A stretch of 64,000 nt of DNA from Candidatus Parcubacteria bacterium (GTDB taxonomy: Bacteria > Patescibacteriota > Minisyncoccia > Minisyncoccales > JAGMDC01), in contig JAGMDC010000003.1 in NCBI GenBank assembly GCA_023128895.1, positions 155,651 to 219,650 of the forward strand. Direction: 5' to 3'. The notes below the pieces were generated by a model. That model was not told the origin of the DNA and searched no databases. It was given only the letters and a program-made list of their open reading frames with translations. Of this stretch, positions 11,243 to 52,124 are shown piece by piece (within the stretch, counting starts at the first letter, position 1; each line of letters opens with the position of its first letter). The position numbers were made by a program, and so were the translations under genes.

Positions 11243-13681
11243 TCAAACTACAATATTTATCAACTTGCTTTTTACAAAAATGACTTTCTTAATGGGTTTG
11301 TGCTCTATGTACTTTTTAACTTTTTCTTGTTTCAATGCCAATTTTTTTGCCTCGGCTTCTGAAATATCAGCCAAGACTTCTATTTTATCGCGCACCTTTC
11401 CATTGATTTGGATAACTAAAGTAATTTTTTCTTCCTTAATCAATTTTGGATCATATTTTGGCCATTGCTCCTCAAAAATTGATTTTTTATTTTTTGATTT
11501 ATGCCACAATTCTTCTGCGATGTGCGGAGCGAACGGACTTAATAATTTCAATAACAATTGATAATCACATAAAGATAATTGTTTTTGTTTTTGTTTTTCC
11601 ATTTCATTCACTAAAACCATTAAAGCGCTAATAGCAGTATTAAACTTAAGATTTTCAATATCCTCTGTCGCTTTCTTTATTGTCTGATGAATTAATCTTT
11701 CTAATTTATCATTATGAGACTGCCGCAGGATTCTTGCGTTGCCAGTAGGCTCCCTCAGAATGACAATGCCTATATTCCAAACTTTGTCTAAAAATCTTTT
11801 CGCGCCAATCACGCCATTGGAATTCCACGTAATTGCTTGCTCAAACGGTCCCATAAACATTTCATAAATCCTTAAACTGTCAGCCCCGTATTTCTCAATA
11901 AGAGCATCTGGATTAACCACATTTCCAAATGACTTTGACATCTTTTTTCCATCTTTTGCTAACACAATTCCATGGGAAGTTCGGCGCAAATACGGTTCAT
12001 CCTGCGGCACAACGTTAATATCATAAAGAAATTTATACCAAAAACGCGAATATAAAAGATGGAGGGTAGTATGCTCCATACCGCCGTTATACCAGTTCAC
12101 GGGAAGCCAGTATTTTAATTTTTCCTTACTTGCCAATGCTTTACTGTTATGCGGGTCAGCATATCGGATAAAATACCAAGATGACCCGGCCCAATTAGGC
12201 ATAGTATCGGTTTCTCTTTTCGCATCTGCGCCGCACTTTGGACATTTACAATTTACCCATTCTGGAATGCTTGCCAAAGGCGACTCTCCAGTGCCTGTTG
12301 GCTGGTATTTTTCAATATAAGGAAGCTCTATTGGCAGGTCTTTGTATGGCACAGGCACTATTCCGCATTTTTGGCAATGGACAAGCGGAATAGGTTCTCC
12401 CCAATAATGCTGTCTGGAAAACACCCAATCCCTTAATTTGTAATTTACTGTTTCTCTGCCAAACCCCTGCTTGCGCGCGTAATTTGTCATTCTCTTTCGC
12501 GCCTGTTTTGAAAATAAATTATCAAATTGCCCTGAATTTATTAAAACACCGTCTTGCGTAAACGCTTTCGGTTCAATTTCTTTATTTTGAATTACAGGAC
12601 TTATTGGCAAATTATATTTCTTGGCAAACGCAAAGTCGCGCTCGTCGTGCGCTGGAACAGCCATTATCGCGCCGGTGCCGTAATGCGGCAAAACATAATC
12701 AGCAGTAAAAATAGGAATTTCTAAATGGTTGAACGGATTTATTGCTTTAATTCCTTTCAATTCTATGCCTGTTTTTTCTTTATCTAATTCGGTCCGTTGT
12801 AAATCGCTTTTCTTCCTGCTTTTTTCAAGATATTTTTTAACCTCTTTGTAATTCTTGATTCTCAATTTTTGATTCTTGATTATTTCGTGTTCAGGCGCCG
12901 CAACCAAATATGTACATCCAAAAATAGTATCAACCCTTGTGGTAAACACTTTAATGTAATCTTGTTTTGAACTTTGGATTTTGAACTTTATTTCTGTTCC
13001 TTCGGACTTTCCTATCCAGTTTATCTGCTGGGTCTTTACTCTATCCGGATAGTCCACTTTTTCTAAATCGTCTATCAGACGGTCCGCGTATTCAGTTATT
13101 TTCAACATCCATTGCTTTAGTTTCTTTTTTTTCACTTCCGCGCCGCATCGCTCGCATTTTCCCGAAACTACTTCTTCGTTAGCAAGCCCTATCTTGCAGG
13201 AAGGGCACCAATTTATCGGCATCTCCGCTTGATATGCCAAACCCTTTTCAAACAATTTTAGAAAAATCCATTGCGTCCACTTATAATATTTCGGGTCAGT
13301 GGTATTAATCTCCCTGCCCCAGTCAAGAGATATGCCAAGGGACTTAAATTGTCTCTTAAAATTAGCAATGTTCCGCGCAGTTGTTTTCTGCGGATGAGTT
13401 CCAGTTTTAATGGCATAATTTTCCGCTGGCAAGCCAAAAGCGTCCCAGCCAATTGGAAACAAAACATTATAGCCCTCCATTCTTTTTTTGCGCGCGGCAA
13501 CATCTAAGGCAATATATGACCGGCAGTGGCCTGTGTGGAGACCATCACCAGATGGATAAGGAAATTCAAATAAAATATATTGCTTTGGCTTTTTTGCAAA
13601 ATCCTTTGCCCTGTAAAGCCCTTGATTTTCCCAAAACTTTTGCGATTTAGATTCTATTTTCTTATGATTATATTCTTCCAT
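11243..13681 (-). CDS. leuS: leucine--tRNA ligase (bacterial type)
   Basis: FPYPSGDGLHTGHCRSY (HIGH region), KMSKSFGN, and the zinc CxxC pairs of the CP1 region. Confidence 0.95.
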   Translation of the reverse strand: MEEYNHKKIESKSQKFWENQGLYRAKDFAKKPKQYILFEFPYPSGDGLHTGHCRSYIALDVAARKKRMEGYNVLFPIGWDAFGLPAENYAIKTGTHPQKTTARNIANFKRQFKSLGISLDWGREINTTDPKYYKWTQWIFLKLFEKGLAYQAEMPINWCPSCKIGLANEEVVSGKCERCGAEVKKKKLKQWMLKITEYADRLIDDLEKVDYPDRVKTQQINWIGKSEGTEIKFKIQSSKQDYIKVFTTRVDTIFGCTYLVAAPEHEIIKNQKLRIKNYKEVKKYLEKSRKKSDLQRTELDKEKTGIELKGIKAINPFNHLEIPIFTADYVLPHYGTGAIMAVPAHDERDFAFAKKYNLPISPVIQNKEIEPKAFTQDGVLINSGQFDNLFSKQARKRMTNYARKQGFGRETVNYKLRDWVFSRQHYWGEPIPLVHCQKCGIVPVPYKDLPIELPYIEKYQPTGTGESPLASIPEWVNCKCPKCGADAKRETDTMPNWAGSSWYFIRYADPHNSKALASKEKLKYWLPVNWYNGGMEHTTLHLLYSRFWYKFLYDINVVPQDEPYLRRTSHGIVLAKDGKKMSKSFGNVVNPDALIEKYGADSLRIYEMFMGPFEQAITWNSNGVIGAKRFLDKVWNIGIVILREPTGNARILRQSHNDKLERLIHQTIKKATEDIENLKFNTAISALMVLVNEMEKQKQKQLSLCDYQLLLKLLSPFAPHIAEELWHKSKNKKSIFEEQWPKYDPKLIKEEKITLVIQINGKVRDKIEVLADISEAEAKKLALKQEKVKKYIEHKPIKKVIFVKSKLINIVV

Positions 13682-13787: not shown

Positions 13788-15743
13788 TTAAAACGGTATA
13801 ATTTCTTTCCAGTTAGGCAGAGGCAAACTTACATTAATTGTTTTGGACTTTTCGCAGCAGCCAACACCGCAATTCCCGTTGCCCATAGTTATGCCTGTGT
13901 CAGTTATGCCAAGTTTTATAACTTTACCGTCCCCGGGCGTGGCAAACTCTATCTTTGGGTTTTCAGAAGACGCGCCGCCGTCTGTGAAAATTGCTTCTGG
14001 AATGGTCCAATCAAATCCCTGCCCGGTACAGGAAACAGTTTCGCCAGCATCATTATAACAAATGCTCACATCTATGAGGCAATCAACTCCCAAAGTTGAA
14101 CATAACTGAACTTCCTCGTTTGCGCTCGGACGTTCAGGAGTAAAAGTAAAATCATCAGGGTAGGGATAAGGATGGACCGGGGTGGTAAATGTCTGAAAAT
14201 TCCCGTCGCCGTCCGGGTCCGCGGCATCGTCATATAATGTCCAGCCAGACCAATCCTCTATCGCGTCTTTAACTTGAACTCGCCAGTAATAATCGTCATT
14301 GTAAAGAATGTCAGAGCCACCTACTTTTACAAGTTCTCCGGAAGTGTCTGTTTCACCGGGATCTCTCTCCCGAAAGACATATTCATTCACAACTGGATCT
14401 GTGAAAGCCGCGTCGGTAGAGACCTGGATATGAAACTGCTGCTGCTGAATACCGCCGCCGTTCTGATATATCCATTTCAATTCAATATGGCCCTGCCCGG
14501 GAGAGCCAGTGCAGTAATTAATAATGCCAAGTTCTAAATTTTCAGCATAAGCCCCGTTACAATCAGAGGACTTGCATTGGCCAGAACAGCAATATCCTCC
14601 AAAACATTCATCGCATATTCCGTCTACACAGCCGCAAGCGCAGGTATCTTTCTTTTTTACAGTAAAATCTCCGCCAGAAATTATATTGGAACACTTGTCA
14701 AATTGATCGCAGACATAAGCCCAGTAATTCTGCGCATTAGTATATTCACTATTATCAGATGTATAATCTGCTGAAGGGTCGACAGCGACAGCAATGTCGC
14801 TCACCACTGCCCCTATTGTGTCCTGTAAACATCCTGAAGTATCTCCTGGCACGCAATTAACGCATAATGCGTCTTGGCAGACATATAATTTAATCGTGTC
14901 TCCAACATCAGAATCAGAAGCCAGAGAACTAAAAATAATATCTCCTCCTCCCTCTTGAGGGTCAGGAGAGTCAGAAACAGAAGTAATTACTGGAGATTGG
15001 TTTGGAACATAATCTGTTATTACTTTATAATCAGAAATATCAGTTCCCGCAATTGGACAGCTTCCAATACCATTTGAAAATCCATCTCCATTAGTATCAC
15101 AATTGGAATGGCTAAAGCTAATCCAGCCAAGGATATTAGAACCCCAAACCCATCCTTGAAATTCAAAAGGGCTTACTCCCCTATCTAAAAAAATCCCGTA
15201 ATCCTGATTCGGAGGTTCAGCAGCGGTTCCTTTTAATTTTATCCAGCCATCCCAACTCCCTCTTTCATTGTTCGGTTTTAAGCTGCCGCTGCATCCATCT
15301 GCGAATACTAAACAAGCCCTTGCCCAGCCGGAAAGAGTGTCATCGGATTCTATTTTTGCCTCGCAAGCGCCGCTGGGACAGCCGGAAAGTTCTCCTTTAT
15401 TAAAACTAATCCATGCAATCTGCTCTGACCATGCATAACCGGAAAGCTCACCGCTGTACTTATCAATATCTACTCCATAGGGCTGAATGGTCTCCCCTAT
15501 TGAACACTGGGAATAGTTTCCCTGGTCAGTAATCCCGTTGCTGTCTGAATCACAGTTTATGGAATTAAAACTGAGCCAGCCGACATTTTCTGACCAAGCC
15601 CAGCCAGAGACATTGTCATCTGCTCCGGCTTCGGCTTCTGAAATAAAAAAAGAATTTCTTTCTATAATTTGAAAAGAAATTAAAAATATTAAAAACAGAA
15701 AAAGATGAAATTTGAAAAATTTTTTTGGCAAACTCTGTTTCAT
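13788..15743 (-). CDS. secreted GW-repeat protein A (4 x G[WY]AWSENxGWISFN-type repeats, Cys-rich core, FN3/PKD-like C-terminus)
   Basis: Signal-like N-terminus. Repeats are GWAWSENVGWLSFN, GYAWSEQIAWISFN and GWVWGSNILGWISFS. The C-terminal about 200 aa parallels the 18257-19552 product and ends LPLPNWKEIIPF. Confidence 0.8.
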   Translation of the reverse strand: MKQSLPKKFFKFHLFLFLIFLISFQIIERNSFFISEAEAGADDNVSGWAWSENVGWLSFNSINCDSDSNGITDQGNYSQCSIGETIQPYGVDIDKYSGELSGYAWSEQIAWISFNKGELSGCPSGACEAKIESDDTLSGWARACLVFADGCSGSLKPNNERGSWDGWIKLKGTAAEPPNQDYGIFLDRGVSPFEFQGWVWGSNILGWISFSHSNCDTNGDGFSNGIGSCPIAGTDISDYKVITDYVPNQSPVITSVSDSPDPQEGGGDIIFSSLASDSDVGDTIKLYVCQDALCVNCVPGDTSGCLQDTIGAVVSDIAVAVDPSADYTSDNSEYTNAQNYWAYVCDQFDKCSNIISGGDFTVKKKDTCACGCVDGICDECFGGYCCSGQCKSSDCNGAYAENLELGIINYCTGSPGQGHIELKWIYQNGGGIQQQQFHIQVSTDAAFTDPVVNEYVFRERDPGETDTSGELVKVGGSDILYNDDYYWRVQVKDAIEDWSGWTLYDDAADPDGDGNFQTFTTPVHPYPYPDDFTFTPERPSANEEVQLCSTLGVDCLIDVSICYNDAGETVSCTGQGFDWTIPEAIFTDGGASSENPKIEFATPGDGKVIKLGITDTGITMGNGNCGVGCCEKSKTINVSLPLPNWKEIIPF

Positions 15744-15773: not shown

Positions 15774-16502
15774 TTATTCCATGTACCAATCCTCATATCC
15801 TTCTCTCTGGGCAAAAAGCATCCAATTAAAAGCACAATCTTTTCTGCCTTCAAACCTTCTGATAATAAAAAAATTCTCTGCTTTTTGAGCAATATACAAA
15901 CCGCAATCGTCTCTTGGCGTCAAAAGAATCTGGTATCCATACGTAGGGCTGATTGTTTCTAAAAATAATGGCTCAATATTTATCCTTGCCTCTCCGTCAA
16001 ATAATTGAGAAGACCCTGAGGTAATAAAATTATTTGTCGGCGCTTCTACTGCAGCCATTCTCCTCTTTCCCTTTGATGTCATAATTTTAGCGTTCTTTAC
16101 TCCAGTAACCGCTAAATCCCCTGCCACACTAGTGCAACTATCAATATTCAAATTTCCTTGAATATTAGCGTTTCCATGAACTGTTAAATTTCCATTTTCA
16201 ATTAAAGCGCCGTCCTGTGCTAAAAGCAATTTCTCCGCGCCGGTATTATTAATAAATTTTAATGTCCCTGCTGAATTAGAAAGTTTGTACACATCCTGTC
16301 CTGTCCCGCCGCCAATGCCTAAATCGCCTAATTTGTTCTGGTAATCAGGACCAGCGTTAATTGGAACAATTATATCTCCATTTACTTGAGGAGGAGAAAA
16401 AGGAGTTTCGCTCCAGGCAAAAATAATATAGCCCCCTAAGACGCTTAATAATAAAGCCCCAAAAACCAAAAAAATTGTTTTTTTAAAATTCAAAAAAGAC
16501 AT
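15774..16502 (-). CDS. anchored surface protein, short form (AWSEP motif, beta-helix-like stalk, conserved C-terminal domain)
   Basis: N-terminus FLNFKK + hydrophobic helix + FAWSETP. PINAGPDYQNKLGDLGIGGGTGQDVYKLSNSAGTLKFINN is nearly identical to the next gene. The C-terminus EAPTNNFIT...CAFNWMLFAQREGYEDWYME is shared with the 16502-18223 product. Confidence 0.75.
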   Translation of the reverse strand: MSFLNFKKTIFLVFGALLLSVLGGYIIFAWSETPFSPPQVNGDIIVPINAGPDYQNKLGDLGIGGGTGQDVYKLSNSAGTLKFINNTGAEKLLLAQDGALIENGNLTVHGNANIQGNLNIDSCTSVAGDLAVTGVKNAKIMTSKGKRRMAAVEAPTNNFITSGSSQLFDGEARINIEPLFLETISPTYGYQILLTPRDDCGLYIAQKAENFFIIRRFEGRKDCAFNWMLFAQREGYEDWYME

Positions 16503-18223
16503 TATGGTTCCATATACCAGTCCTCATACCCTTTTCTTAAAGCGTATAAAAACCAGTCAAAAGCGCAATCTTGTTTTCCTTTTGATTTTTTTACTAAAAA
16601 ACCCTCTTTATCCTGGTCGGCAACATACAGGCTGCAGCTATCTTTCGCGGTCAAAAAAACTTGATAATCTTTTTTAGTGCTGATTGTTTCTAAAAATAAT
16701 GGCTCAATATTTATCCTTGCTTCTCCGTTACTTAATTGAGAGGAACCAAAAGTAATAAAATTATTTGTTGGCGCTTCTACTGCCGCCATTCGTCTTACTC
16801 CCTTTGAAGTCATAATCTTAGCGCTTTTTACTCCAATCACTGTTAAATCTCCGTCAATAGTAAGGTTATTCCCAATGCTTAAATTTCCGTTTATGATTTC
16901 GCTTTCGTCTGGAGGAACAAGCTTAAAAATACAAAATTTTCCATTTCCATTGCTTGCCACATAAATATAAAAGCCGGACACAAAAACAGACACAGGCGAA
17001 CTTAAATTAGCGGATTCATCATCTAAAAATAAAATGTTGTCGGGGTCTAAAACATCAAAAATAACTAATTTACTATTATTTTGACTTGCCACATAAGCGT
17101 AAGTAGTTCTGACAAAAACAGATTTAGGTATGGACAAATTAGTGCTGATATAGTCTTTTGCAACAATAGAATCTGGATTGGAAATATCAAAAATAAGCAA
17201 CCGACTATTTCCTTGATCTGCCACATAAGCAAAATTCCCTTGGGCAAAAACAGATCTAGGTCTGGACAGATTAGTATTAATATGGCCTTTTGCAACAATA
17301 GAGTCGGGATTGGAAATATCAAAGATAGCAAAAGAACCGTTGGACATTAAACTTCCATTATTTATTACATAAGCAAAATTCCCTTGGACAAAAACATCAA
17401 TGGGAGTATCTAAATTAGTGCTATCAGAATCTTTTCTAACGATAGAATCGGGATTGGAAATATCAAAAATAATAAGAGAAGCAGAGACCATGAAGCTTGC
17501 CTGACTTACCGTATAAGCAAAATCGCCCTGGACGAAAACAGTTGTAGGGTCATCTAAACCGCCAATAGAACCTTTTGCAACAATGGAATCGGGATTGGAA
17601 ATATCAAAGATAGCCAGTTTATTGTCAATCGGGCTTACCACATAAGCATAATCGCCCTGGACATATATATCAGCAATATCGCCTAAACCAGTGTTAATAG
17701 AACCTTTTGTCACAATATTTTCAGGGTCTGAAATATCAAAAATGACAAAATTAGGCTGAAACATAGCATCCCAACCCTTTACTACATAAGCAAAATCGCC
17801 CTGGACGAAAACAGATGTAGGATCAGCTAAGCCATCAACAAAATCTTTTGGCTCAATTACGCCTGATCCGGGTATATGCTGAGTTGCCACTTCAGCATCG
17901 CCATTAATTGTCAAATTTCCATTTTCAATCAAGGCGCCGTCCTGGCCCAAAAGCAATTTTTCCGCGCCGGCATTATTAATAAATTTTAATGTCCCGGCTG
18001 AATTAGAAAGCTTGTACACATCCTGGCCTGTCCCGCCGCCAATGCCTAAATCGCCTAATTTATTTTGATAATCAGGGCCAGTATTAATAGGCAGATATAG
18101 GCCTGTTAAAGGAGGTAAAGAGGAGGGCTCTGTCCATGCGAAAACAAAACAGCCTATTGCTATGCTTAGAGCTAAAATACTGGTGATTAAAGCGGTTCTT
18201 TTTTGAAATTTTGAAAAAAACAT
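16502..18223 (-). CDS. anchored surface protein, long form with LVIVD-repeat beta-propeller insert
   Basis: Same N- and C-terminal modules as the 15774-16502 product. The centre has about 7 repeats of FVQGDFAYVV....L.IFDISNPDSIVAKG (LVIVD-type). A TAATG overlap joins it to the downstream gene. Confidence 0.8.
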   Translation of the reverse strand: MFFSKFQKRTALITSILALSIAIGCFVFAWTEPSSLPPLTGLYLPINTGPDYQNKLGDLGIGGGTGQDVYKLSNSAGTLKFINNAGAEKLLLGQDGALIENGNLTINGDAEVATQHIPGSGVIEPKDFVDGLADPTSVFVQGDFAYVVKGWDAMFQPNFVIFDISDPENIVTKGSINTGLGDIADIYVQGDYAYVVSPIDNKLAIFDISNPDSIVAKGSIGGLDDPTTVFVQGDFAYTVSQASFMVSASLIIFDISNPDSIVRKDSDSTNLDTPIDVFVQGNFAYVINNGSLMSNGSFAIFDISNPDSIVAKGHINTNLSRPRSVFAQGNFAYVADQGNSRLLIFDISNPDSIVAKDYISTNLSIPKSVFVRTTYAYVASQNNSKLVIFDVLDPDNILFLDDESANLSSPVSVFVSGFYIYVASNGNGKFCIFKLVPPDESEIINGNLSIGNNLTIDGDLTVIGVKSAKIMTSKGVRRMAAVEAPTNNFITFGSSQLSNGEARINIEPLFLETISTKKDYQVFLTAKDSCSLYVADQDKEGFLVKKSKGKQDCAFDWFLYALRKGYEDWYMEP

Positions 18224-18256
18224 AATTTTTAAAAAATAAACTTTAAACTTTAACTA

Positions 18257-19552
18257 CTAAAATGGTATGACTTCCTTCCAATTTGGCAAAGGGAGGCTAA
18301 TATCAAATAATTTCTCTCTCGCGCAAAAGCCAATGCTATCAGTTATGCCAAGTTTTATAACTTTGCCATCCCCGAGCGCGTCAAACTGAATTTTTGGATT
18401 TTCAGAAGAGTCGTCGCTGTCTATGAAACTCGCATCGGGGATAGTCCACTCAAATGCGTTGCCGGTACAGGAAATAGCTCCGCCAGCGGCGTTATAACAA
18501 ACGCTCACATCTTCAACGCAATCGACTCCCAAAGTTGAACATAATTGAATTTCTTCGCCTACACTCGGCGATTCAGGTAATAGAGTAAAGTCGGGATAAG
18601 GATAGGGATGAAGCGGGGTATCAAATTCTGGTCCCCCTTTCCAAACAGACGCCAATCCCAGAACATCTTCAACCTGAACCTGCCAATAATAATGGTCGTT
18701 ATAAAAAATATCTTGAGGCCCTGAAGGAGAAAGAACTACAACTATACATGAAGTGCACTCGCCGTCCGGAGATACAACTCGGACAACATCCTCAAAATTT
18801 ACAAGAGGATCAACAAATGTTCCATCAGGATTTTTAGCCGGATTTGCGGCTACTTGAAGATTAAATTTAGCCTGCGCGTTTCCAGAATCATTTTTATATT
18901 TCCATTCCAAACTAATATGGCCTTTTCCTGCAACCTCTGTGCAATAATTCGGACTAAAAGTTAAATCTTCAATATAAGGCATGGACAAAAATGGTACGGT
19001 AGTGACAACCTTGTAATCAGAAGCGCCACAAATATTCTCTCCGTCTGGTCCACCTTCAAAACAATTAAAACTAATCCAACCGTAATCATCGGACCACGCC
19101 CATTTATGAAATTCACCTGTATCTATGTCAATATCAACTCCGTAATCTGTATCCCTTAGCCGTATCCAGCTGTCAGAGCATAAAACCTTTGCCCAGCCGG
19201 AAACCTCGCCATTGAGCATATCAACCCAAGCTGAACAGCCGTGAGTAGAATCAGGATATTCGCAACCACTTAAATCACTCGCCTCAAAACTAATCCAACC
19301 CACATTTTCCGACCACGCGTATCCTGAAAAATCGCCTGTAGCTTCATCAATATCTACTCCATAATCTATATTGCACCGAGGTTCCGGCAGTTCAGAATTA
19401 TTACAATTAAAACTAATCCAGCCAATATTTTCCGACCAAGCCCAGCCAAAGACATTATCACTAGCATCGGCATTCACTCTGCTGTTTTGAAAAGCTAAAA
19501 AACCAAAAAATGATAAACAAAATATTAAAATAACAATTTGAAATTTTTTCAT
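18257..19552 (-). CDS. secreted GW-repeat protein B
   Basis: Repeats are GWAWSENIGWISFN, GYAWSENVGWISFE and KWAWSDDYGWISFN. The C-terminus PYPYPDFTLLPESPSVGEEIQLCSTLGVDC...LPLPNWKEVIPF is shared with the 13788-15743 product. Confidence 0.8.
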   Translation of the reverse strand: MKKFQIVILIFCLSFFGFLAFQNSRVNADASDNVFGWAWSENIGWISFNCNNSELPEPRCNIDYGVDIDEATGDFSGYAWSENVGWISFEASDLSGCEYPDSTHGCSAWVDMLNGEVSGWAKVLCSDSWIRLRDTDYGVDIDIDTGEFHKWAWSDDYGWISFNCFEGGPDGENICGASDYKVVTTVPFLSMPYIEDLTFSPNYCTEVAGKGHISLEWKYKNDSGNAQAKFNLQVAANPAKNPDGTFVDPLVNFEDVVRVVSPDGECTSCIVVVLSPSGPQDIFYNDHYYWQVQVEDVLGLASVWKGGPEFDTPLHPYPYPDFTLLPESPSVGEEIQLCSTLGVDCVEDVSVCYNAAGGAISCTGNAFEWTIPDASFIDSDDSSENPKIQFDALGDGKVIKLGITDSIGFCAREKLFDISLPLPNWKEVIPF

Positions 19553-19555
19553 AAT

Positions 19556-20617
19556 TTATTCTTGAACAACTATTTTAATGGGAATTCCGTCAGCTGTAAC
19601 AGCCATAGAAACAGGCACAGTGGGTTCAAATCTTTGAAATACTTTGCCCATTTTTCCAGTGCTGTTTATATCGTAATAATATAGAATAATACCGTCGGAA
19701 GAAACATAGTCAATTGTCTCTCTTCTAAAAGTTAAATTATAAACTGACGCGCTCCCGCTACAATATGAACCTGACCCGCTTGTAGTAATCTCAACTACAT
19801 CGCCTTGTTTTACATGATAGTACCAGGTTCCTGATTTTGTCTCGGTCTTGCATTCCCATCTCATACAGGAACTAAACGCCCAAAAAGTACACACTGAATA
19901 ACCATGAGCAGTGAGTTGTTCTTTCTCTTCTCCGTTGATATAAAGCTTAAAACTCTCCCAGTACCCTCTACACCTAGCGCTAACATTTGCAGTAACCTTT
20001 ATTACTCCTTCCCCATCTACTATTACCTCCTCCCCCTCTATTAGTGTCAAAGAATCGCTTCCGCTCTTGCCTATATGTAAAATCTCTTCTGTATTGTCGC
20101 TCTGAAACTCTTCTCCTATTGGCATTGCTCCGCCAGAATAACACATTAGTTTTCCGTCATTATTTGCCATCAAAAAACAATCATTAAATCCAGAAATATG
20201 AACATCACCCGCTCCGTCAATTTTCATTCTTTCTGTCCCCTGAGTATAAAACTCTATTTCTTCCTCTTCTTTATCTAAATAAATAGACGCTGCTGTTGGG
20301 GCGCCGGTATCTGACAATAAATGTAAATCATTATGCCCTTTTATGTAATCAGCTCTTTCAATATCTCCCTTATTACCATCAGCATTGAGATAAAGATGCC
20401 CGTCTGAAACAGTAAGAGCGGAAACAGTAAGATCCCCTGCTTTGGTCTGGGAATCACTGCTTATATTAATCAGTTCATAAATATTATCTGCTGGCAAAAT
20501 ATTTGGCGGGACATCGCCCGGCTCATCCCAAGCAGAAACAATATAGCCTATTACCGCGCTGGAAACCAAAATTACAGACGACAAAATAATTATTTTTTGA
20601 AAATTTGAACAAAGCAT
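19556..20617 (-). CDS. anchored surface protein, triplicated family member a (AWDEP motif)
   Basis: NFQK + helix + SAWDEPGDVPP. Blocks shared with the next two genes are GDIERADYIKG, EILHIGKSGSDS, FKLYINGEEKEQLTAHGY and SGSGSYCSGSASVYNLTFRR. Confidence 0.75.
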   Translation of the reverse strand: MLCSNFQKIIILSSVILVSSAVIGYIVSAWDEPGDVPPNILPADNIYELINISSDSQTKAGDLTVSALTVSDGHLYLNADGNKGDIERADYIKGHNDLHLLSDTGAPTAASIYLDKEEEEIEFYTQGTERMKIDGAGDVHISGFNDCFLMANNDGKLMCYSGGAMPIGEEFQSDNTEEILHIGKSGSDSLTLIEGEEVIVDGEGVIKVTANVSARCRGYWESFKLYINGEEKEQLTAHGYSVCTFWAFSSCMRWECKTETKSGTWYYHVKQGDVVEITTSGSGSYCSGSASVYNLTFRRETIDYVSSDGIILYYYDINSTGKMGKVFQRFEPTVPVSMAVTADGIPIKIVVQE

Positions 20618-20629
20618 ATTGAAAATTAA

Positions 20630-21646
20630 TTATTCAACAATAATAATAATCGGAATCCCATCAGCAGTAACAGCTATGGAAGTAGGGACCGCGAACTGTT
20701 TTTGTTTTGTCGCCTTTTCCATTTCTCCACTAGTATCTTTGTCATAGTAATACAAAATATCTTCTTCGGAAAAAACATACTCAACTCTATCTCTTCTAAA
20801 TGTTAAATTATAAACTGAAGCATTCCCGCTGCAATATGAACCGGACCCGCTTGTAGCAAGCTTAATTACATCGCCTTGTTTTATATGATAATACCAGGTT
20901 CTTGATTTTGCATCGGTCGCGCATTCCCACCTAAGGCAAGAGTGAAACCCCCACCAAGTACACTCCGCATAACCATTAGCAGTAAGTTGTTTTTCTAAAT
21001 TTCCATTGATATAAAGCTTAAAATTCTCCCAATACCCGCTGCACCTAGCGCTAACATACGCGGTAACCTTTATTACTCCCTCTTCGTCTATTATTGTCCA
21101 TGAATCGCTTCCGTTCTTGCCTATATGCAAAATCTCTACCTGCGTGCTTTGGAACTTATCATCTCCCGGCGCGCCTGTGCCCTCATAACATCCTATTTTT
21201 CCATTCTCATTCACCTCTAAAAAGCAATTCTTTAAGCCGGAAATATACATATCGCCGTTCCCATCAATCTTAACTCCTTCTATCGCTTGTGTGCTCAATT
21301 TTATTGCTTTCTCTCCTTTATCTAAATCAAGACAAGCATTATCCTCTGCGCTAGACCATAAATGCAAGCCATCCTGTGCTTTTATATAATTCACTCTTTC
21401 AATATCACCTCCTTTGCTGTCGTCCTCATTAAGATAAAGCTTGCCGCCTAAAGTCGTAAGTTCAGTAACAGTAAGGTCTCCGCTTTTTATTTGGGCCTCT
21501 GGACCGGCGTTGATTGGGGCATCAAGATTCCATGGCAAAGCCAATGGTGGCTCATCCCAAGCAAAAACCATATACCCAGTAATTGCGCTGAAAACTAAAA
21601 TTCCAGCAACTAAAGCAATTATTTTGTGAAAATTTAAATAAATCAT
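20630..21646 (-). CDS. anchored surface protein, triplicated family member b (AWDEP motif)
   Basis: NFHK + helix + FAWDEPPLALP. It has the same conserved blocks as its neighbours. Confidence 0.75.
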   Translation of the reverse strand: MIYLNFHKIIALVAGILVFSAITGYMVFAWDEPPLALPWNLDAPINAGPEAQIKSGDLTVTELTTLGGKLYLNEDDSKGGDIERVNYIKAQDGLHLWSSAEDNACLDLDKGEKAIKLSTQAIEGVKIDGNGDMYISGLKNCFLEVNENGKIGCYEGTGAPGDDKFQSTQVEILHIGKNGSDSWTIIDEEGVIKVTAYVSARCSGYWENFKLYINGNLEKQLTANGYAECTWWGFHSCLRWECATDAKSRTWYYHIKQGDVIKLATSGSGSYCSGNASVYNLTFRRDRVEYVFSEEDILYYYDKDTSGEMEKATKQKQFAVPTSIAVTADGIPIIIIVE

Positions 21647-21651
21647 ATAAT

Positions 21652-22656
21652 TTAAGGATTAGGAAATGAAATAGGCAGTCCGTCAGATGTTATTGCCACA
21701 GAGACAGGGACATCGGGATTATACTGATTTTCTACTTCATTCATCTTGCCCGTGCTATTGATATCATAGTAATATAAAATAGTGCCTTCGCAAGAAGCAT
21801 AGTCAATCACATCTCTTTTATATCTGAGTTTATAAACTGAAGCGCTCGCGCTAGTATTATAACTTGTTCCGCTTGTAGTAATCTTAACTACATCACTTTG
21901 CTTTATATGATAATACCAGATTCCTGAATTATTATTCTCCCAGGAATCATGCCATGGCCAATCGTATCGAAAGCCGCCGGAAACACTGATATGCTCTTTT
22001 TCTTCTCCATTGATGTAAAATTTAAAATCTGCCACTGTGCTAGAACCATACGCAGATATGCTGGCAGCCACCTTTATTACTACCTCTTGCTCTTCGTTTG
22101 GCACCGTCCAGGAATCGCTTGCGTTTATGTCTATATGTAAAATTTCTGTTTGGCTGGGCCAAAATTCATCACCGTCTGGTATCTGTCCGCCAACATAACA
22201 TCTTATTTTTCCATCTTCATCTACTTCTAAGAAACAATCACTTAATTTGAGAATATGCATTTTACCATTTTTATCAACTTTCATTTTTTCATCTCCTTTG
22301 ATAGAAAATTTTATCTCTTTATTTTGGTTATCTAAATGAACAGACGCTATATTAAACGGATCCGAATCTAAATATAAACCATCTTGGCCTTTTATGTAAT
22401 CTACCCGCTCAATATCTCCTTCTTCGCCATCATCATTAAGAAAAACCTTATTGCCCGAAGCAAAAAGAGAAGAAACAGCAAGAGCGCCTTGTTTGGTTTG
22501 AGCAACAGGGCCAATATTTATCGGCGTCGGCGTGTTTTCCTGCGGCTGCTCAGCAGTGGGACCATCCCACGCAAAAACAATATATCCCATTGCAGCGCTC
22601 AAAACTAAAACTCCGCCTGTAAGCGCAATTGTTTTTTGAAATTTTGAGAAATACAT
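21652..22656 (-). CDS. anchored surface protein, triplicated family member c (AWDGP motif)
   Basis: KFQK + helix + FAWDGPTAEQP. This is the most divergent copy and lacks the Cys pattern of a and b. Confidence 0.75.
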   Translation of the reverse strand: MYFSKFQKTIALTGGVLVLSAAMGYIVFAWDGPTAEQPQENTPTPINIGPVAQTKQGALAVSSLFASGNKVFLNDDGEEGDIERVDYIKGQDGLYLDSDPFNIASVHLDNQNKEIKFSIKGDEKMKVDKNGKMHILKLSDCFLEVDEDGKIRCYVGGQIPDGDEFWPSQTEILHIDINASDSWTVPNEEQEVVIKVAASISAYGSSTVADFKFYINGEEKEHISVSGGFRYDWPWHDSWENNNSGIWYYHIKQSDVVKITTSGTSYNTSASASVYKLRYKRDVIDYASCEGTILYYYDINSTGKMNEVENQYNPDVPVSVAITSDGLPISFPNP

Positions 22657-22710: not shown

Positions 22711-23100
22711 TTAAAATTCTTCCACAGCGTTTTCAAAATGTAAAATTTCTGGCTTTTGGGTTTCCAAATCAATTTTAATGCTAATAATATCAATTTGCCA
22801 GGGCGTATCTAAAGAAAATTTATTTTGTGTCAGCCAAATTTGCGCGAGTTTCTGCAATTTTCTCTGTTTGCGAAAATCAACTCTTTGCTCCGGGGCGATT
22901 CCTTTGCCTGAACTCAAAGTTTTCACTTCCACAAACCTTATAACATCGTCTTTTCCCGCGATAATATCAATCTCCCCGAATTTGCGTCCTGTCCTTGTTT
23001 TCTGAATCCAATTTCTCGCCAATATATCAAAATCTTTGCTTTCAAGATAATCACGCGCAATCTTTTCCCCTAATTCGCCTAATTGTTTACGGTTTATCAT
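22711..23100 (-). CDS. yraN: YraN family (UPF0102) endonuclease-like protein
   Basis: GELGEKIARDYLESKDFDILARNW...GEIDIIAGKDDVIRFVEVKT is the typical YraN core. Confidence 0.8.
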   Translation of the reverse strand: MINRKQLGELGEKIARDYLESKDFDILARNWIQKTRTGRKFGEIDIIAGKDDVIRFVEVKTLSSGKGIAPEQRVDFRKQRKLQKLAQIWLTQNKFSLDTPWQIDIISIKIDLETQKPEILHFENAVEEF

Positions 23101-23270
23101 AGTGGTGTTTGTTGGACAAAGTCCGAACTTATTTTAAACAAAATCCCGACGCTGACTGACCCCCGACTATATACACTTTTAGTGTTTTATTTCGGCTGGC
23201 TCGGGGGCAGGCTGCTGCCTGCCCCCTCGCTTTAATTTATTCGGGAAAACAGGCGGTTTTAAGGTAAAAA
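23099..23270. repeat. 172-bp inverted repeat, left copy (IR-L)
   Basis: The reverse complement of 24674-24845 matches with 5 mismatches by hand alignment. It contains a 10-bp GC hairpin, GGGGGCAGGC-tgct-GCCTGCCCCC, at 23203-23226. Confidence 0.9.
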
Positions 23271-23384
23271 AAGGTTAAAAAATTTGGTTGACTTTATTTT
23301 TTATTTGGATTATTATTAAAATAAATAAGATAAATAATCCACAATTTAGCCCATACATTATAATGGTATATCATTAAAGAAGGT

Positions 23385-23624
23385 ATGTCAAGTCAAAATA
23401 ATATCTTAAAATCAAATATCGGTAAAAATATAAAAAAATTGAGACAGAAAAAAGGGATTTCTCAAGATAGATTATCAAAGATAGCCGATTTATCTCTGAA
23501 TACAATTGTGAATATTGAAACCGGTAATAATCCAAATCCAACCCTTGAGACACTTCAAAAAATAGCTAAAGCTCTCAATGTTTCCGTTGATGAGTTATTG
23601 AAATTAATATATGACCAGAAATAA
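23385..23624 (+). CDS. XRE-family helix-turn-helix transcriptional regulator
   Basis: IGKNIKKLRQKKGISQDRLSKIADLSLNTIVNIETGNNPNPTLETLQKIAKALNVSVDELL is a classic Cro/C1 HTH. Confidence 0.85.
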   Translation: MSSQNNILKSNIGKNIKKLRQKKGISQDRLSKIADLSLNTIVNIETGNNPNPTLETLQKIAKALNVSVDELLKLIYDQK

Positions 23625-24471
23625 AATTATTAAAGCATTGATAACAAGATTATTTGTAGCACTTATTGCCTTTAGTGTTGTTGGTTGGATTATTTTATTC
23701 GGTAAGAATCTGCCGGATAGTGTCACGCCTATTGTTTACGCGATAATCGCTGTCTCGATTATTACTTCAATTTATGTTCTCTGGAAGAAACCAAATTTAC
23801 TGCGTAATAAAAAAGTTATCATTGGGATGGTCGTTTTTATAATCGTTGGTGCCATCGGCTGGTTAACATCAATCTCTGAAATTACTGAATGCAGACCTTA
23901 CAAATGTGGAGAAGATTTTATTTGTGCAAAACCAACTGATTTAGGTTTAAAAATAACAATGGGCGAATGTTCTTCTGAGTTTATAGAAAATATAGATTTC
24001 TATTGCGTAAAGGAAAATAATATTTGTATTAAACATCCAATTAATTTCACGATTGATCAAGTAGAAAAATCTATTACGGACTATTTATTAACACAAAAAT
24101 ATTTCAGCTGGAAGACAGCAACTGACAGCCGTAATTTTTGCGTTATTGAGAATTTAAATCCGGCAGAAGACGGCTTGTTTCCATTGTATGTTTGGGTTCG
24201 CTGCGGGGAGTTTGTTTTGCAAAACGGCAAATTAAAGGGATTAAGCGGGATATCGGCGCCGGCTAAAATAAATTATCCGAACCACTTGTCGTTTTATGAT
24301 ATAAATAAAATGTCTCATGAAACGCCAAGAAGCGGTTCGCTGTATTCAAAAGACATCAAGGCAATATTTCCTCTAAATGTACAAGAAGTGATTTTTGGTT
24401 TTTATATTCCCAATCTTTCCAATATCAGTAAAAAACTTGAGTCAGTTGCGCTTAGTGGCTTGAAGCAATAA
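23611..24471 (+). CDS. membrane protein of unknown function (3 predicted TM helices plus Cys-containing extracytoplasmic domain)
   Basis: Overlaps the XRE gene by 14 nt. Hydrophobic segments are FVALIAFSVVGWIILF, IVYAIIAVSIITSIYVLW and IIGMVVFIIVGAIGWL. No recognisable catalytic motif. Confidence 0.6.
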   Translation: MTRNKIIKALITRLFVALIAFSVVGWIILFGKNLPDSVTPIVYAIIAVSIITSIYVLWKKPNLLRNKKVIIGMVVFIIVGAIGWLTSISEITECRPYKCGEDFICAKPTDLGLKITMGECSSEFIENIDFYCVKENNICIKHPINFTIDQVEKSITDYLLTQKYFSWKTATDSRNFCVIENLNPAEDGLFPLYVWVRCGEFVLQNGKLKGLSGISAPAKINYPNHLSFYDINKMSHETPRSGSLYSKDIKAIFPLNVQEVIFGFYIPNLSNISKKLESVALSGLKQ

Positions 24472-24673
24472 TGAAAACTAATAAAAAAATGAAAGTCAAT
24501 CGGAATTTTTACCAACCTATCTGTCAAGAGTGGGCTAAAAAACTACTTTTGGCAAGTTAAACCGGCCCTTCAAAGTTGACATTCGGGAATGTCAAGTAAA
24601 TGTCAACTTTGAGAAAAATTTGCATTACGGAATGCAAGGCGGACGCAAACTTTTCATTCTGTATTTTCGGCCA

Positions 24674-24845
24674 TTTTTACCTTAAAACCGCCTGTTTTCC
24701 CGAATAAATTAAAGCGAGGGGGCAGGCAGCAGCCTGCCCCCGAGCCAAAGAAAATAAAACACTAAAAGTGTATGTAGTCGGGGGTCAGTCAGCGTCGGGA
24801 TTTTGTTTAAAATAAGTTCGGACTTTGTCCAACAAACACCACTAT
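24674..24845. repeat. 172-bp inverted repeat, right copy (IR-R)
   Basis: See IR-L. Together the two copies bracket 23271-24673. Confidence 0.9.
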
Positions 24846-24912
24846 AAGCGATTTGCGTCGGATGTCGGCGGCTTCGCCGCCTCTGCCGCCGAGCCATTAC
24901 GCCGCTCGGCGG

Positions 24913-24992
24913 ATAAATAAATATAATCCCAGGGTTTTTTGAAATCAATTGAAAATTTTTGAAAGGAAATTTTAGGGTTCGAGCCGATTTTC
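24913..24992 (-). pseudogene. relic of a serine-recombinase 3' end (inverted relative to the intact gene)
   Basis: The minus-strand translation KKIGSNPKISFQKFSIDFKKPWDYIYL aligns with KKIGSDCTIASQKLSIDFKKPWNYLYF at the C-terminus of the 25091-26710 product. The DNA is also similar to 26455-26535. Confidence 0.55.
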
Positions 24993-25090
24993 TTCTTTCG
25001 CCTTCGGCGAAAGGCAAAGCGAAATTTTATTAATTTTATTAAATTGTCGGCGCAAGCGTTTCTTTTTTCAATTATCAAATTATTAATACT

Positions 25091-26710
25091 ATGATTAAAT
25101 ATTTCATCTATTGCAGAAAATCGTCAGAGGACGAAGAACGGCAAATCTTGTCTATTGAAGCCCAACTCGCGGAACTGCGCGAATACGCAAAGCAAAACGG
25201 GATTTTTGTTGTCCGCGAGTTTGTTGAATGTAAAACCGCCAAAGAGCCGGGGCGGGAAATATTTAATCAAATGCTTTCCGAGATTGAAAAAGGAAACGCC
25301 GAGGGAATTTTAGCGTGGAATCCAGACAGACTGGCTCGCAATTCTATTGACGGCGGAAAAATCATCTATCTCGTTGACACTGGAAAAGTCGCCTCGCTAA
25401 AATTCCCGACATTTTGGTTTGAGCCAACGCCGCAGGGAAAATTTATGTTATCTGTCGCTTTTGGGCAGGCAAAATATTACACCGACAATTTAAGAGAAAA
25501 CATTTTGCGGGGAATTAGGCAAAAAATTCGCAGAGGCGAACTTTCGGCAAAAGCCCCAATCGGATATTTCAACGAACCGAGATTGAGAACTATTGAACCA
25601 GACAGAAATACTTTCAAAAAAGTGAAAAAGATTCTGTGGGCTTTTGCCTCTGGAAAATACACGCTAACAGCAATTCAAAGCAAAATGTTTTCTCTTGGCT
25701 TGATTGGTAAGGACGGAAAACCGCCTCATCTGTCAACAATACAGAGTATACTCACAAATCCGTTTTACTACGGACATTTCAAATATCGCAATGAAATTCA
25801 TCAAGGAAGCCACAAGCCAATGATTTCAAAGAAACTTTTTGACAAAATCCAGCAAGCGCTCAAAGACAATAGCAAACCGCGACATAGTAAAAAAGACAAA
25901 GGTTTTCTTTTTTTGGGTTTTGCCAAATGTGGAGAGTGCGGCTATTGTATTACCGCTGAACGCAAGATTAAAAAAAACGGCAAGAAATACACATATTATC
26001 GCTGTACCAAAAAAAGTAAAATTCAAAAATGCTCTCAAAACCGATTTTTGCGGGAAGAAAAACTCGCGGAACAGGTAAAAGAAATTTGTCAAAAAGTTTC
26101 TTTGTCTGATGATTGGCAAGAAAAATATCTGAAAAAAGTTGATGAATGGGAAAAAGAAAATTGCACATTGTCAAATCTTTTCGCTCAAAATCTCAAAACA
26201 GAATTAAACAAAGTCAAAACAAAAATACAACGCCTCACTGACGCCTATTTGGAAGGCGGTTTTGAATTATCGGAATTTCAGCAAAATAAAAACGCCTTAA
26301 TGGCGCGAAAAAAAGATATTGAGGAAAAATTATCAGATTTTGAGCGAAAAGGAAATAATTGGCTCGGACTTGTTCGGAATTGGATAATTGAAGCCAATCA
26401 AGCTAAAAATCTCGCTTTAACAGAAAATTTTGCCGAGATGAAAAATTTTCTGAAAAAAATCGGCTCGGACTGTACAATCGCCTCTCAAAAACTTTCAATT
26501 GATTTCAAAAAACCTTGGAATTACCTTTATTTTGCGAAGCAAAACAAGGTTCTTGAAGCGAAAACGAAAGCGAAAGGTTCTTATTTTTTGCCTTTGCAAA
26601 CGAGGGGCGAAGCCCCGAGCGACGCGGAAAATCAAGTAAATCGTAAAATGTGGACCTGGCGGGAATCGAACCCACATCAGAGCAATGCGAATGCCCTCTT
26701 CTACCATTAA
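25091..26710 (+). CDS. large serine recombinase (resolvase domain + recombinase domain + zinc ribbon + coiled coil)
   Basis: YCRKSSEDEERQILSIEAQ (catalytic Ser region), DRLARN, CGECGYCITAE...YYRC zinc ribbon, and a long coiled coil. The last about 60 nt of the ORF are antisense to tRNA-Ala, so the true C-terminus is uncertain. Confidence 0.85.
   Translation: MIKYFIYCRKSSEDEERQILSIEAQLAELREYAKQNGIFVVREFVECKTAKEPGREIFNQMLSEIEKGNAEGILAWNPDRLARNSIDGGKIIYLVDTGKVASLKFPTFWFEPTPQGKFMLSVAFGQAKYYTDNLRENILRGIRQKIRRGELSAKAPIGYFNEPRLRTIEPDRNTFKKVKKILWAFASGKYTLTAIQSKMFSLGLIGKDGKPPHLSTIQSILTNPFYYGHFKYRNEIHQGSHKPMISKKLFDKIQQALKDNSKPRHSKKDKGFLFLGFAKCGECGYCITAERKIKKNGKKYTYYRCTKKSKIQKCSQNRFLREEKLAEQVKEICQKVSLSDDWQEKYLKKVDEWEKENCTLSNLFAQNLKTELNKVKTKIQRLTDAYLEGGFELSEFQQNKNALMARKKDIEEKLSDFERKGNNWLGLVRNWIIEANQAKNLALTENFAEMKNFLKKIGSDCTIASQKLSIDFKKPWNYLYFAKQNKVLEAKTKAKGSYFLPLQTRGEAPSDAENQVNRKMWTWRESNPHQSNANALFYH
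26580..26635 (-). repeat. nested-hairpin element, short copy inside the recombinase 3' end
   Basis: The minus strand reads GATTTTCCGCGTCGCTCG-GGGC-ttc-GCCC-CTCGTTT...AAAATAAG, with the same flanks as the HAD-gene copies. Confidence 0.5.
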
Positions 26711-26721
26711 AATACAGGCCC
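26651..26721 (-). tRNA. tRNA-Ala (anticodon CGC)
   Basis: Hand fold: acceptor GGGCCTG/CAGGTCC with the G3:U70 alanine identity pair, anticodon stem GGGCA/TGCTC, loop TTCGCAT, T-arm GTGGG-TTCGATT-CCCGC. 71 nt, no encoded CCA. Confidence 0.85.
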
Positions 26722-26733
26722 ATATTGTTTTTG

Positions 26734-26804
26734 TCGGGATGCCGAGATTCGAACTCGGGCTGCCGCCTCCCGAAGGCGGTATGCTACCATTACACCACAC
26801 CCCG
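26734..26804 (-). tRNA. tRNA-Pro (anticodon CGG)
   Basis: Hand fold: acceptor CGGGGTG/CATCCCG, anticodon stem CCGCC/GGCGG, loop TTCGGGA, T-arm CCGAG-TTCGAAT-CTCGG. 71 nt, no encoded CCA. Confidence 0.85.
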
Positions 26805-26811
26805 TAATATT

Positions 26812-39571: not shown

Positions 39572-39578
39572 AATAATA

Positions 39579-40277: not shown

Positions 40278-40404
40278 ATTTCATATTTCGGATTTTTCCT
40301 TATTATACCAACAACCACAAATTTGTCAAGAGCAATGAGAACAAAGTTAAAATTGTGAATTATTGATTTTGACAAACATACGATAATTTGGGAAAATATA
40401 AGTA

Positions 40405-52062: not shown

Positions 52063-52124
52063 CGCGTTTAGTAAAAGGTTAAGGGGAGGCATCTGTCTCT
52101 CTTATTTTTTTTGCGCTGTTACTG

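Follow-up and report, generated by a model that had tools for sequence, protein, structure and literature searches.

Why should five genes of one operon in a candidate-phylum bacterium, whose products range from 242 to 573 amino acids (aa) in length, open with the same short tryptophan-centered motif, and is that motif a new kind of sorting signal? The question arises from a stretch of 64,000 nucleotides of contig JAGMDC010000003.1 of Candidatus Parcubacteria bacterium (here called the window, by which the whole stretch is meant), in which an earlier note had described an AW-x-E-P motif directly behind the N-terminal helix of five paralogs and had proposed it as a sorting or processing site read by shared machinery. 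All five open reading frames are present on the minus strand at the coordinates given (Table 1; host protein records KAW43_01670 and KAW43_01680, Candidatus Parcubacteria bacterium), the strings FAWSETP, FAWTEPS, SAWDEPG, FAWDEPP and FAWDGPT are exact, and the Ala-Trp pair is Ala29-Trp30 in each of them. The five N-termini are thus confirmed as a real observation, one that reaches far beyond the window. The explanation that we favor, and that we give about an even chance of being right, is that they constitute a module made of a signal-peptide cleavage site and a conserved stem of ~30 residues, an adaptor that would dock fibers with interchangeable heads on a shared surface partner.

The N-terminal module and its family

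Chance can be dismissed as the source of the motif in the five paralogs, because a six-frame scan of the whole window finds the pattern AW.[EGD][PT] at these five sites only, and a profile hidden Markov model (HMM) of the module matches these five open reading frames only (E 2e-19 to 2e-28). All five proteins start with M-x3-4-F-x-K, continue with an uncharged stretch of 22-23 residues ending in [FS]-Ala29-Trp30, and proceed through x-[E/G]-[P/T] and a Pro-rich spacer to (P)IN-x-G-P, found in four of the five, and Q-x-K-x-G-x-L; the columns M1, F6, K8, L12, L17, S20, G24, A29, W30, P38, I45, N46, Q52, K54, G56 and L58 are invariant in all five. Conservation is not confined to AW-x-E-P, as had been described, but spans ~60 residues, and the PIN[ATI]GP signature ascribed to all of the paralogs holds for four, the 353-aa protein reading LINISS instead. 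The mature parts, which had been called strongly diverged, are so between two sub-families, where the common region is the first ~60 residues only, but not within them: the members of sub-family A (334, 338 and 353 aa) are 47-58% identical over their full length, and those of sub-family B (242 and 573 aa) have their first ~110 and last ~130 residues in common, with an LVIVD beta-propeller inserted between the two in the longer protein. Recent gene conversion was ruled out as the source of the N-terminal identity, the 5' ends of the five genes being only 59-77% identical in DNA, and the conservation is for the same reason attributed to selection on the protein. Orthologues in a sister genome keep the motif as AWTGP, AWTEP and AWSEA.

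A profile built from the five N-termini and one orthologue was searched with HMMER against 1.84 billion cluster representatives, revealing 3,748 protein clusters at E<=1e-3 (296 at E<=1e-10), in which the match almost always covers residues 1-65 of proteins 67-1,131 aa long and precedes unrelated C-termini. The occurrence of the motif in otherwise unrelated proteins extends to thousands, and scanning the window and related genomes with the HMM of the N-termini recovers the five open reading frames together with a large family. The motif is retained in sister genomes and in thousands of otherwise unrelated proteins; the view that it is a functional N-terminal signal and not a structural accident is supported. 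Among GTDB representative genomes, 17 of 17 module hits are Patescibacteria (Parcubacteria, Nealsonbacteria, Wildermuthbacteria, Minisyncoccia and metagenome-assembled genomes labeled Saccharibacteria), and a scan of 2.9 million viral contigs found no module; within the sampled genomes the family is confined to Patescibacteria.

Neither Pfam-A nor NCBIfam has a model that covers the module, whether in the five window proteins or in the 106 relatives searched, no PHROG matches it, and sequence matches to the PDB amount to noise for the module, for sub-family A and for the 242-aa protein of sub-family B. A word-indexed homology search with the first 109 residues alone returned nothing, the exhaustive profile search being needed to bring the family to light, and a literature search for AWTEP and its variants, or for tail-fiber-like surface proteins of Patescibacteria, found no relevant paper. 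The module thus appears to define an undescribed, unnamed and very large family.

The alanine-tryptophan junction

Anchoring 148 sequences on the Trp (position 0, hence Trp in 148/148) gave the consensus K(-22) x I A L x x G V L x x S x x x G Y x V F A / W T E P x x x P P x G N V x A P I N V G x x x Q x K x G x L, where the slash marks the Ala-Trp junction; Glu or Gly follows at +2, and 145 of the sequences have Pro at +3. Position -1 is Ala in 142 of the 148 and Gly in one, 142 have Val, Ile, Ala or Leu at -3, and position -6 is Gly, Ser or Ala in 136; Lys occupies -22 in 123, providing the basic residue with which the hydrophobic stretch starts, and most of the sequences have their Trp at residues 27-30. 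The window proteins and the family alike show the basic n-region and hydrophobic region of a Sec signal peptide, and the junction follows the AXA rule for signal peptidase I: positions -1 and -3 are occupied by small residues, a helix breaker stands close to -6, and the first residue behind the bond is Trp rather than Pro.

The assignment of the Ala to the cleavage site and of the Trp to the mature protein is favored by three further observations. First, divergent members of the family carry unrelated, shorter signal peptides with classical c-regions that end at the same junction (VSLVSA/WTAP, LQAIA/FTEP, SGNTVHA/FQGP, SYAFA/WTAP, YVSA/QWSGP and AYG/GWFEP), while the stem PP-x-GNV-x-AP-x-N…Q-x-K is retained. 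Second, where residues are inserted between Ala and Trp (AVW, AAPW, AQSAW, AATW), the Trp-x-[E/G]-Pro stem persists alongside an AXA-like site, and what changes is the spacing of the two. Third, [LF]AW is kept by seven of seven module proteins in loci that were picked through a neighboring gene of the GWAWSEN-repeat family (described below) and so were not selected by the motif. The GWAWSEN family itself shows comparable conservation of -3 and -1 at its own ordinary cleavage site. The invariant Ala is accordingly best read, from the alignments, as residue -1 of an ordinary signal peptidase I site, and the parts that appear specific to the family are the predicted mature N-terminus, W-T-E-P-x3-PP-x-GNV-x-AP-IN-x-G-x3-Q-x-K-x-G-x-L, and an unusually conserved hydrophobic region of 22 residues.

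The motif does not, then, have the look of one new processing site, since Ala at -1 with Val or Ile at -3 suits ordinary signal peptidase I and divergent AXA sites occur at the same junction. The earlier note had set against its own proposal the possibility of an ordinary signal peptidase I site unrelated to the motif; the predicted site does look ordinary, but it is not unrelated to the motif. Annotators should be wary of the AW motif, which, striking as it is, corresponds largely to an ordinary signal-peptidase site rather than to a new sorting signal.

Several features of the junction weigh against cleavage followed by docking of the stem. The uncharged run is 22-23 residues long in all five paralogs, as compared with 11 and 16 in the ordinary signal peptides encoded in the same operon and ~7-15 in the usual h-region, a length more typical of a membrane anchor, and the majority form lacks a polar c-region, having the hydrophobic GY[LIV]V[FL]A instead. 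Trp at +1 is unusual among signal peptidase I substrates. The hydrophobic region is moreover conserved position by position (L-18, G-15, V-14, L-13, S-10, G-6, Y-5), with a mean of 2.59 bits versus 1.75 bits in the GWAWSEN family used as a control, although the mature part of GWAWSEN proteins is far better conserved; cleavage alone fails to account for this pattern. Selection bias may contribute to it, given that the profile included the hydrophobic region, but the positional pattern is real nonetheless.

The same features would be expected if the 22-residue helix were an uncleaved signal anchor that stays in the membrane (N-in/C-out), with Trp30 at the lipid-water interface, T-E-P capping the helix, the Pro-rich stem crossing the wall, and the Gly/Ser/Gly face packing within a trimer or with a single-pass neighbor. 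Such an anchor would agree with the length of the uncharged run, with the per-position conservation that includes small residues at -15, -10 and -6, with the AlphaFold2 (AF2) model of the 338-aa paralog A338, in which one continuous helix spans residues 3-28 and stops at Ala29, and with the gene for a single-pass membrane protein that adjoins 40 of 88 module genes. However, it leaves the near-invariant Ala at -1 and the Val or Ile at -3 without a reason, and it does not sit well with the divergent members that exchange the helix for short, unrelated signal peptides with polar c-regions and AXA sites yet keep the stem, or with the variable spacing between an Ala and a Trp that are both retained. 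We regard a permanent anchor as unlikely, and on the sequence evidence cleavage is the more likely of the two fates of the helix.

If the helix is removed by signal peptidase I, its conservation could reflect a targeting role of the signal peptide, by analogy with YSIRK signals. YSIRK-G/S proteins have position-conserved signal peptides on surface proteins with differing mature parts and are cut by signal peptidase I. The likeness lies in a basic residue followed by a conserved Gly and Ser within the hydrophobic region; the arrangement differs, being YSIRK-x3-G-x2-S in the one case and K-x6-G-x4-S in the module, and YSIRK proteins end in LPXTG whereas module proteins do not. The regular expression [YF]SIRKxxxGxxS finds nothing in the window proteins, and no YSIRK family is among the Pfam or NCBIfam hits of the 106 relatives.

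Other known signals were likewise sought, and the earlier statement that the motif is neither a prepilin site nor a lipobox nor LPXTG stands on each count. A regular expression for the prepilin site (Gly at -1, Phe or Met at +1, Glu at +5) finds none in the five proteins, and neither they nor the 106 relatives match N_methyl (PF07963) or TIGR02532, while true pilins in related loci do show GFTLIELLVV. The lipobox [LVI][ASTVI][GAS]C is absent from the first 40 residues of all five proteins; the sole Cys, in the 573-aa paralog B573 (AIGC), falls in a column where the other four paralogs have Tyr and the wider family has Tyr or Phe. The C-termini end …DGIPIIIIVE, …GLPISFPNP and …GYEDWYME(P), with nothing like LPXTG close to them, and no twin arginine of the Tat pathway occurs in the first 20 residues.

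A dedicated system, in which AW-x-E-P would be read by a specialized peptidase or sorting enzyme other than signal peptidase I, signal peptidase II, PilD or sortase, is what the original proposal amounted to. It could draw on the conservation of Trp, of Glu or Gly at +2 and of Pro at +3, which goes well beyond the needs of signal peptidase I, on a conserved signal peptide reminiscent of specialized targeting signals such as YSIRK, and on the existence of neighbor genes of unknown function. Yet the junction already fits the ordinary rule, the small neighbor protein carries no protease signature, and across ~20 genome-derived loci and the window cluster no peptidase-like gene adjoins the module genes recurrently besides pilD; the co-occurring peptidase that had been envisaged is thus missing, PilD being matched by no PilD site in the module. 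In the window, a sortase gene (39579-40277) and two subtilase genes (46279-56588) lie 17-30 kilobases (kb) away, and with that distance and no recurrence beside module genes both were ruled out as shared machinery. We consider a dedicated enzyme very improbable. What remains of the proposed shared recognition machinery is the recognition, which conserved neighbor genes make plausible, and not the special peptidase, which is not needed.

With regard to these distant genes themselves, the sortase gene adjoins one for a 976-aa PKD-domain protein (36641-39571), and the two (36641-40277) are likely a sortase-substrate pair unrelated to the module genes. The subtilases (Peptidase_S8), each of ~1,500 aa with N-terminal peptidoglycan-binding domains, are encoded in tandem on the minus strand (46279-50829 and 52125-56588).

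Variable heads, conserved neighbors and candidate partners

The C-terminal parts behind the module are of phage tail fiber-like, jelly-roll, beta-propeller and lectin types. Pfam searches of the 106 relatives revealed Peptidase_S74 (nine proteins), Gp34_trimer, Collar, Gp53-like_C, H_lectin, F5/8 type C, Dockerin and LVIVD, and tail-fiber PHROGs match the C-termini of relatives at 1e-24 to 1e-37 (P0032, P0044). In the window, phrog_6616 ('tail protein') matches residues 111-241 of the 242-aa paralog B242 at 1.5e-12 and residues 442-571 of B573 at 3.5e-19, so that homology to tail-fiber families is found for sub-family B and relatives, and for sub-family A the connection is one of fold resemblance only. 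The AF2 model of A338 comprises, behind its N-terminal helix, a region of low confidence (residues 29-93, predicted local distance difference test score, pLDDT, <50) and a beta-sandwich head (residues ~165-338, pLDDT >90); that the stem, like the shaft, is modeled at pLDDT <50 is a further point against the favored explanation. Foldseek matches of the head are weak (E 5e-5 to 3e-3) and comprise lambda gpJ, C1q/cerebellin/TNF-like folds, chlamydial Pgp3 and PRD1 P3, the best PDB matches being mostly jelly rolls of trimeric assemblies; B242 has no sequence relative in the PDB. Judging from the domain families and the fold resemblance, the fibers are probably trimeric.

Despite these resemblances, a phage or prophage origin was ruled out by the lack of viral-contig hits, by the Sec signal peptides and by the housekeeping neighbors (LeuRS, GlmS, YraN and the CCA-adding enzyme surround the module genes), and because of these neighbors and the export signals the module proteins are taken as cellular surface proteins and not prophage parts. 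Genes of the bAvd or 23S_rRNA_IVP type occur within a few kb of tail-fiber-like or pilus genes in two loci (L005:5912-6262 and L024:1-248); they resemble the accessory gene of diversity-generating retroelements, which hints that some fiber heads may be hypermutated.

In the explanation we favor, the proteins would be exported through Sec by means of a basic n-region ending at Lys8 and a long hydrophobic region ending in [VI]-[FS]-Ala, and signal peptidase I would cut after Ala29. The new N-terminus, Trp-[T/D/S]-[E/G]-Pro, would together with the Pro-rich spacer, (G)N-x-x-x-P-[I/L]-N-x-G and Q-x-K-x-G-x-L form a constant adaptor of ~30 residues docking fibers with different heads onto one common cell-surface partner, and the variable heads (jelly roll, beta-propeller, lectin or tail-fiber tip) would do the binding, with a host cell's surface as the most plausible target. 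On this proposal the stem stays constant while the rest diverges because it is the adaptor to a shared partner. Candidates for that partner would be a single-pass membrane protein of ~170 aa, the GWAWSEN-repeat protein, of which two are encoded in this operon, and the type IV pilus.

These candidates emerged from gene neighborhoods, of which 17 came from genomes, 80 from metagenomes and 8 from a selection by GWAWSEN homologues. A 54-sequence alignment of the module was too diverse for pattern-based locus finding, and a 6-sequence alignment was used instead, which biases the loci found towards the consensus sub-type. The small membrane protein (~170-190 aa) has one N-terminal membrane helix and a conserved ectodomain (consensus …YPPLLPEEIFSISGTI… and …ENIKGKTEF…), and gives only sub-threshold hits in Pfam. 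Among the 88 module genes with sufficient upstream sequence, 40 have the gene of this protein within 130 base pairs (bp), and for 35 of the 40 it is directly upstream on the same strand. The GWAWSEN family, with at least 1,963 homologues, consists of proteins of ~400-450 aa that combine SG[WY]AWSENIGWISF repeats and Ig/PKD domains with a signal peptide of the ordinary kind; at the C-terminus they have a conserved LPLP-x-W-x-E-x-x-P, which reads LPLPNWKE[IV]IPF in the window paralogs. The AF2 model of the 431-aa window member reaches a pLDDT of 91.7, and its repeat domain (residues ~34-185) has no counterpart in the PDB, where Foldseek gives generic Ig, FN3 and PKD folds only. Of the ~40 loci that were selected by the module and are at least 8 kb long, 14 have a GWAWSEN gene within 10 kb of the module gene, and conversely a module gene lies within 10 kb in six to seven of the eight loci chosen by a GWAWSEN homologue, in most cases only one or two genes from it.

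Type IV pilus genes are the third recurrent neighbor. The order pilM-pilO-pilB-pilT-pilC-pilins-pilD-(minor pilins)-module is seen in six independent loci (L014, L016, L024, L062, L071 and L077), in which the module gene is first or second after pilD where a complete pilus operon ends, and module genes stand beside pilus genes in four more (L019, L023, L026 and L106). GWAWSEN genes are next to minor-pilin or pilus genes in several genomes, and in L024 and L028 minor-pilin-like genes come immediately after them. The window, for its part, has two GWAWSEN genes but neither a small-protein gene nor pilus genes, which also counts against the favored explanation, the proposals of the small protein and of the pilus as partners thus resting on other genomes.

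This arrangement raises the question of whether the module proteins are themselves part of a pilus, either as pilin-like subunits whose helix would enter the type IV pilus as alpha1-N unprocessed by PilD, perhaps with the protein as the first subunit, at the tip, or as PilY1-like riders on a minor-pilin tip complex. The gene order agrees with such a role, and so does a precedent from Saccharibacteria strain TM7x, where PilX1 (jelly-roll) and PilX2 (beta-propeller) lack PilD signals and PilX2 is implicated in, and needed for, host binding (PMC12206443); in the window, too, the module is followed by a jelly-roll-like head in A338 and by a beta-propeller in B573. Compared by description only, PilX1, PilX2 and PilY1 resemble the module proteins in being encoded at the end of pilus operons, in lacking a PilD site and in having a large C-terminal beta-propeller or jelly-roll. 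However, PilY1 has a conserved C-terminal propeller and a variable N-terminus, the opposite polarity to the module proteins, and most module genes, unlike those of PilY1 and PilX, are outside pilus loci: about one-fifth of the loci of at least 8 kb have pilus genes. A pilin role is further at odds with the missing prepilin residues and N_methyl or TIGR02532 matches reported above, and the helix cannot serve as a pilin stem in those members whose signal peptides are of the ordinary, cleavable type. We judge the pilus explanation improbable, more so than that of an anchor. A PilY1-like tip that rides on the pilus after cleavage by signal peptidase I would nevertheless be compatible with the adaptor explanation, and the position in pilus operons and the PilX2 precedent keep a pilus-tip version of docking open by analogy.

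A more specific form of the adaptor explanation, which we put forward tentatively and think rather less than even in its chances, would make the module the address tag of a Patescibacteria-specific fiber display. The stem would plug tail-fiber-like host-recognition heads into a base made of the small protein and/or the GWAWSEN protein, in some lineages on or co-assembled with the type IV pilus, and the signal peptide would aid targeting. If this were true, the display would be the main means of host choice, modular in design, for a large share of candidate-phyla bacteria.

Known systems and the layout of the cluster

The MAT fibers of Bdellovibrio offer an instructive comparison. All 21 of them carry a conserved domain right after the signal peptide, followed by variable tips with or without S74, and that domain has been proposed to bind a cell-surface element of the predator (PMC10769870). 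The likeness, which is one of architecture only, lies in cellular tail-fiber-like proteins with a conserved region after the signal peptide, long fibers with variable tips, sub-families with and without the S74 chaperone-protease domain, and several paralogs per genome; recognition of another bacterium is proposed for them as well, and they are suspected to act together with type IV pili (PMC10769870). In contrast to the module, with its ~30-residue Pro-rich stem and conserved signal peptide, the conserved element of MAT fibers is a beta-rich domain of ~130 aa, and their bearer is a diderm predator, whereas the Patescibacteria have different conserved neighbor genes. Phage tail fibers and tailspikes share with the module proteins their C-terminal matches and the principle of a constant N-terminal adaptor with a variable, receptor-binding distal part, but they have no Sec signal peptide and dock on a baseplate through their N-termini, while module genes stand among housekeeping genes.

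Pam pili are, like the module family, restricted to the candidate phyla radiation, and consist of surface filament proteins that are exported by Sec and have genes for membrane-anchored accessory proteins next to their own (bioRxiv 10.64898/2026.03.03.709456). Pam pilins are Ig-like, being built of an N-terminal beta-sandwich domain of nine strands, a linker strand and a truncated Ig-like domain; neighboring genes encode FimC/PapD-like chaperones, with which the pilins assemble by donor-strand exchange, and no AW-x-E-P-like motif is reported for them (bioRxiv 10.64898/2026.03.03.709456). Identity with Pam pili was ruled out, A338 having a disordered stem and shaft and a jelly-roll-like head and the operon no chaperone-like family, and the passenger domains behind the module are tail-fiber-like; the module profile and the window proteins match no PDB sequence in a copy of the PDB that may not hold the Pam structures.

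Constant N-terminal adaptors on modular, exported fiber adhesins are thus, by analogy, of a kind already known, and what appears new is a very large, apparently unnamed family of Patescibacteria. The Patescibacteria themselves make up a very large and mostly uncultured portion of the Bacteria, and their host recognition is known only in outline, via type IV pili in Saccharibacteria; all cultivated Patescibacteria live attached to other microbes (PMC12206443). The ~60-residue signature provides a marker for thousands of candidate adhesins with phage-like, swappable binding heads, and with the small protein and GWAWSEN two conserved candidate partner families of unknown function to test; it thereby opens a concrete, testable way into how candidate-phyla bacteria might present and exchange proteins that bind a host.

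In the window the module genes belong to a run of seven minus-strand genes between YraN (22711-23100) and LeuRS (11243-13681), in the order A334, A338, A353, GWAWSEN-431, B573, B242, GWAWSEN-651 (Table 1). With gaps of only -1 to 33 bp between them, the seven are considered one operon, in which five genes, all on the minus strand, share the ~60-residue module.

Table 1. Positions of the operon genes, of the modules within them, and of small-protein genes in other loci.
Feature	Position	Strand	Description
A334	21652..22656	-	334 aa, sub-family A, first operon gene; signal peptide, stem, low-confidence shaft, C-terminal beta-sandwich head; module HMM E=1.6e-28; 47% identical to A338
A334 module, residues 1-66	22459..22656	-	AWDGP at 22558-22572; predicted signal peptidase I bond Ala29 (22570-22572)/Trp30
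A338	20630..21646	-	338 aa, sub-family A; AF2 model and Foldseek
A338 module	21449..21646	-	AWDEP at 21548-21562; predicted cleavage Ala29/Trp30
A353	19556..20617	-	353 aa, sub-family A; SAW not FAW, LINISS not PINxGP; module HMM E=2.4e-19
A353 module	20408..20617	-	AWDEP at 20519-20533; predicted cleavage Ala29/Trp30
GWAWSEN-431	18257..19552	-	431 aa, interleaved in operon; signal peptide …SRVNA/DASDN, SG[WY]AWSENxGWISF repeats, Ig/PKD domains, C-terminal LPLPNWKEVIPF; candidate fiber partner
B573	16502..18223	-	573 aa, sub-family B; module, LVIVD beta-propeller repeats (Pfam LVIVD 4.9e-33), C-terminal phage 'tail protein'-like domain (phrog_6616)
B573 module	18026..18223	-	AWTEP at 18125-18139; predicted cleavage Ala29/Trp30
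B242 (KAW43_01670)	15774..16502	-	242 aa, sub-family B; module, short beta-helical stretch, C-terminal tail-protein-like domain as in B573 (phrog_6616)
B242 module	16305..16502	-	AWSET at 16404-16418; predicted cleavage Ala29/Trp30
GWAWSEN-651 (P0160)	13788..15743	-	651 aa, last operon gene; ordinary signal peptide, same C-terminal LPLPNWKEIIPF
Small-protein genes, examples	L023:11287-11838, L025:11466-11972, L006:9435-9953		~40 further loci

A sister genome has the same cluster from YraN to LeuRS with more paralogs. In the sister population, sub-family A paralogs are intact on one contig (L001:3796-5696) and split into fragments of 127-173 aa on another (L002:2179-5144), which could be gene decay, strain variation or within-cluster assembly differences. 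Upstream of the operon, ~3.6 kb separate YraN from the CCA-adding enzyme (23100-26810) and hold a large serine recombinase gene (25091-26710), the 3' end of which overlaps a tRNA-Ala on the opposite strand, a tRNA-Pro and the gene of a 286-aa membrane protein; because the sister genome has only ~280 bp at this place, the stretch is probably an inserted mobile element. Farther along the window, the GC content falls to 27% at 40001-42000, as compared with ~38% elsewhere, in a segment that contains a UbiA prenyltransferase gene and the start of a histidine kinase gene.

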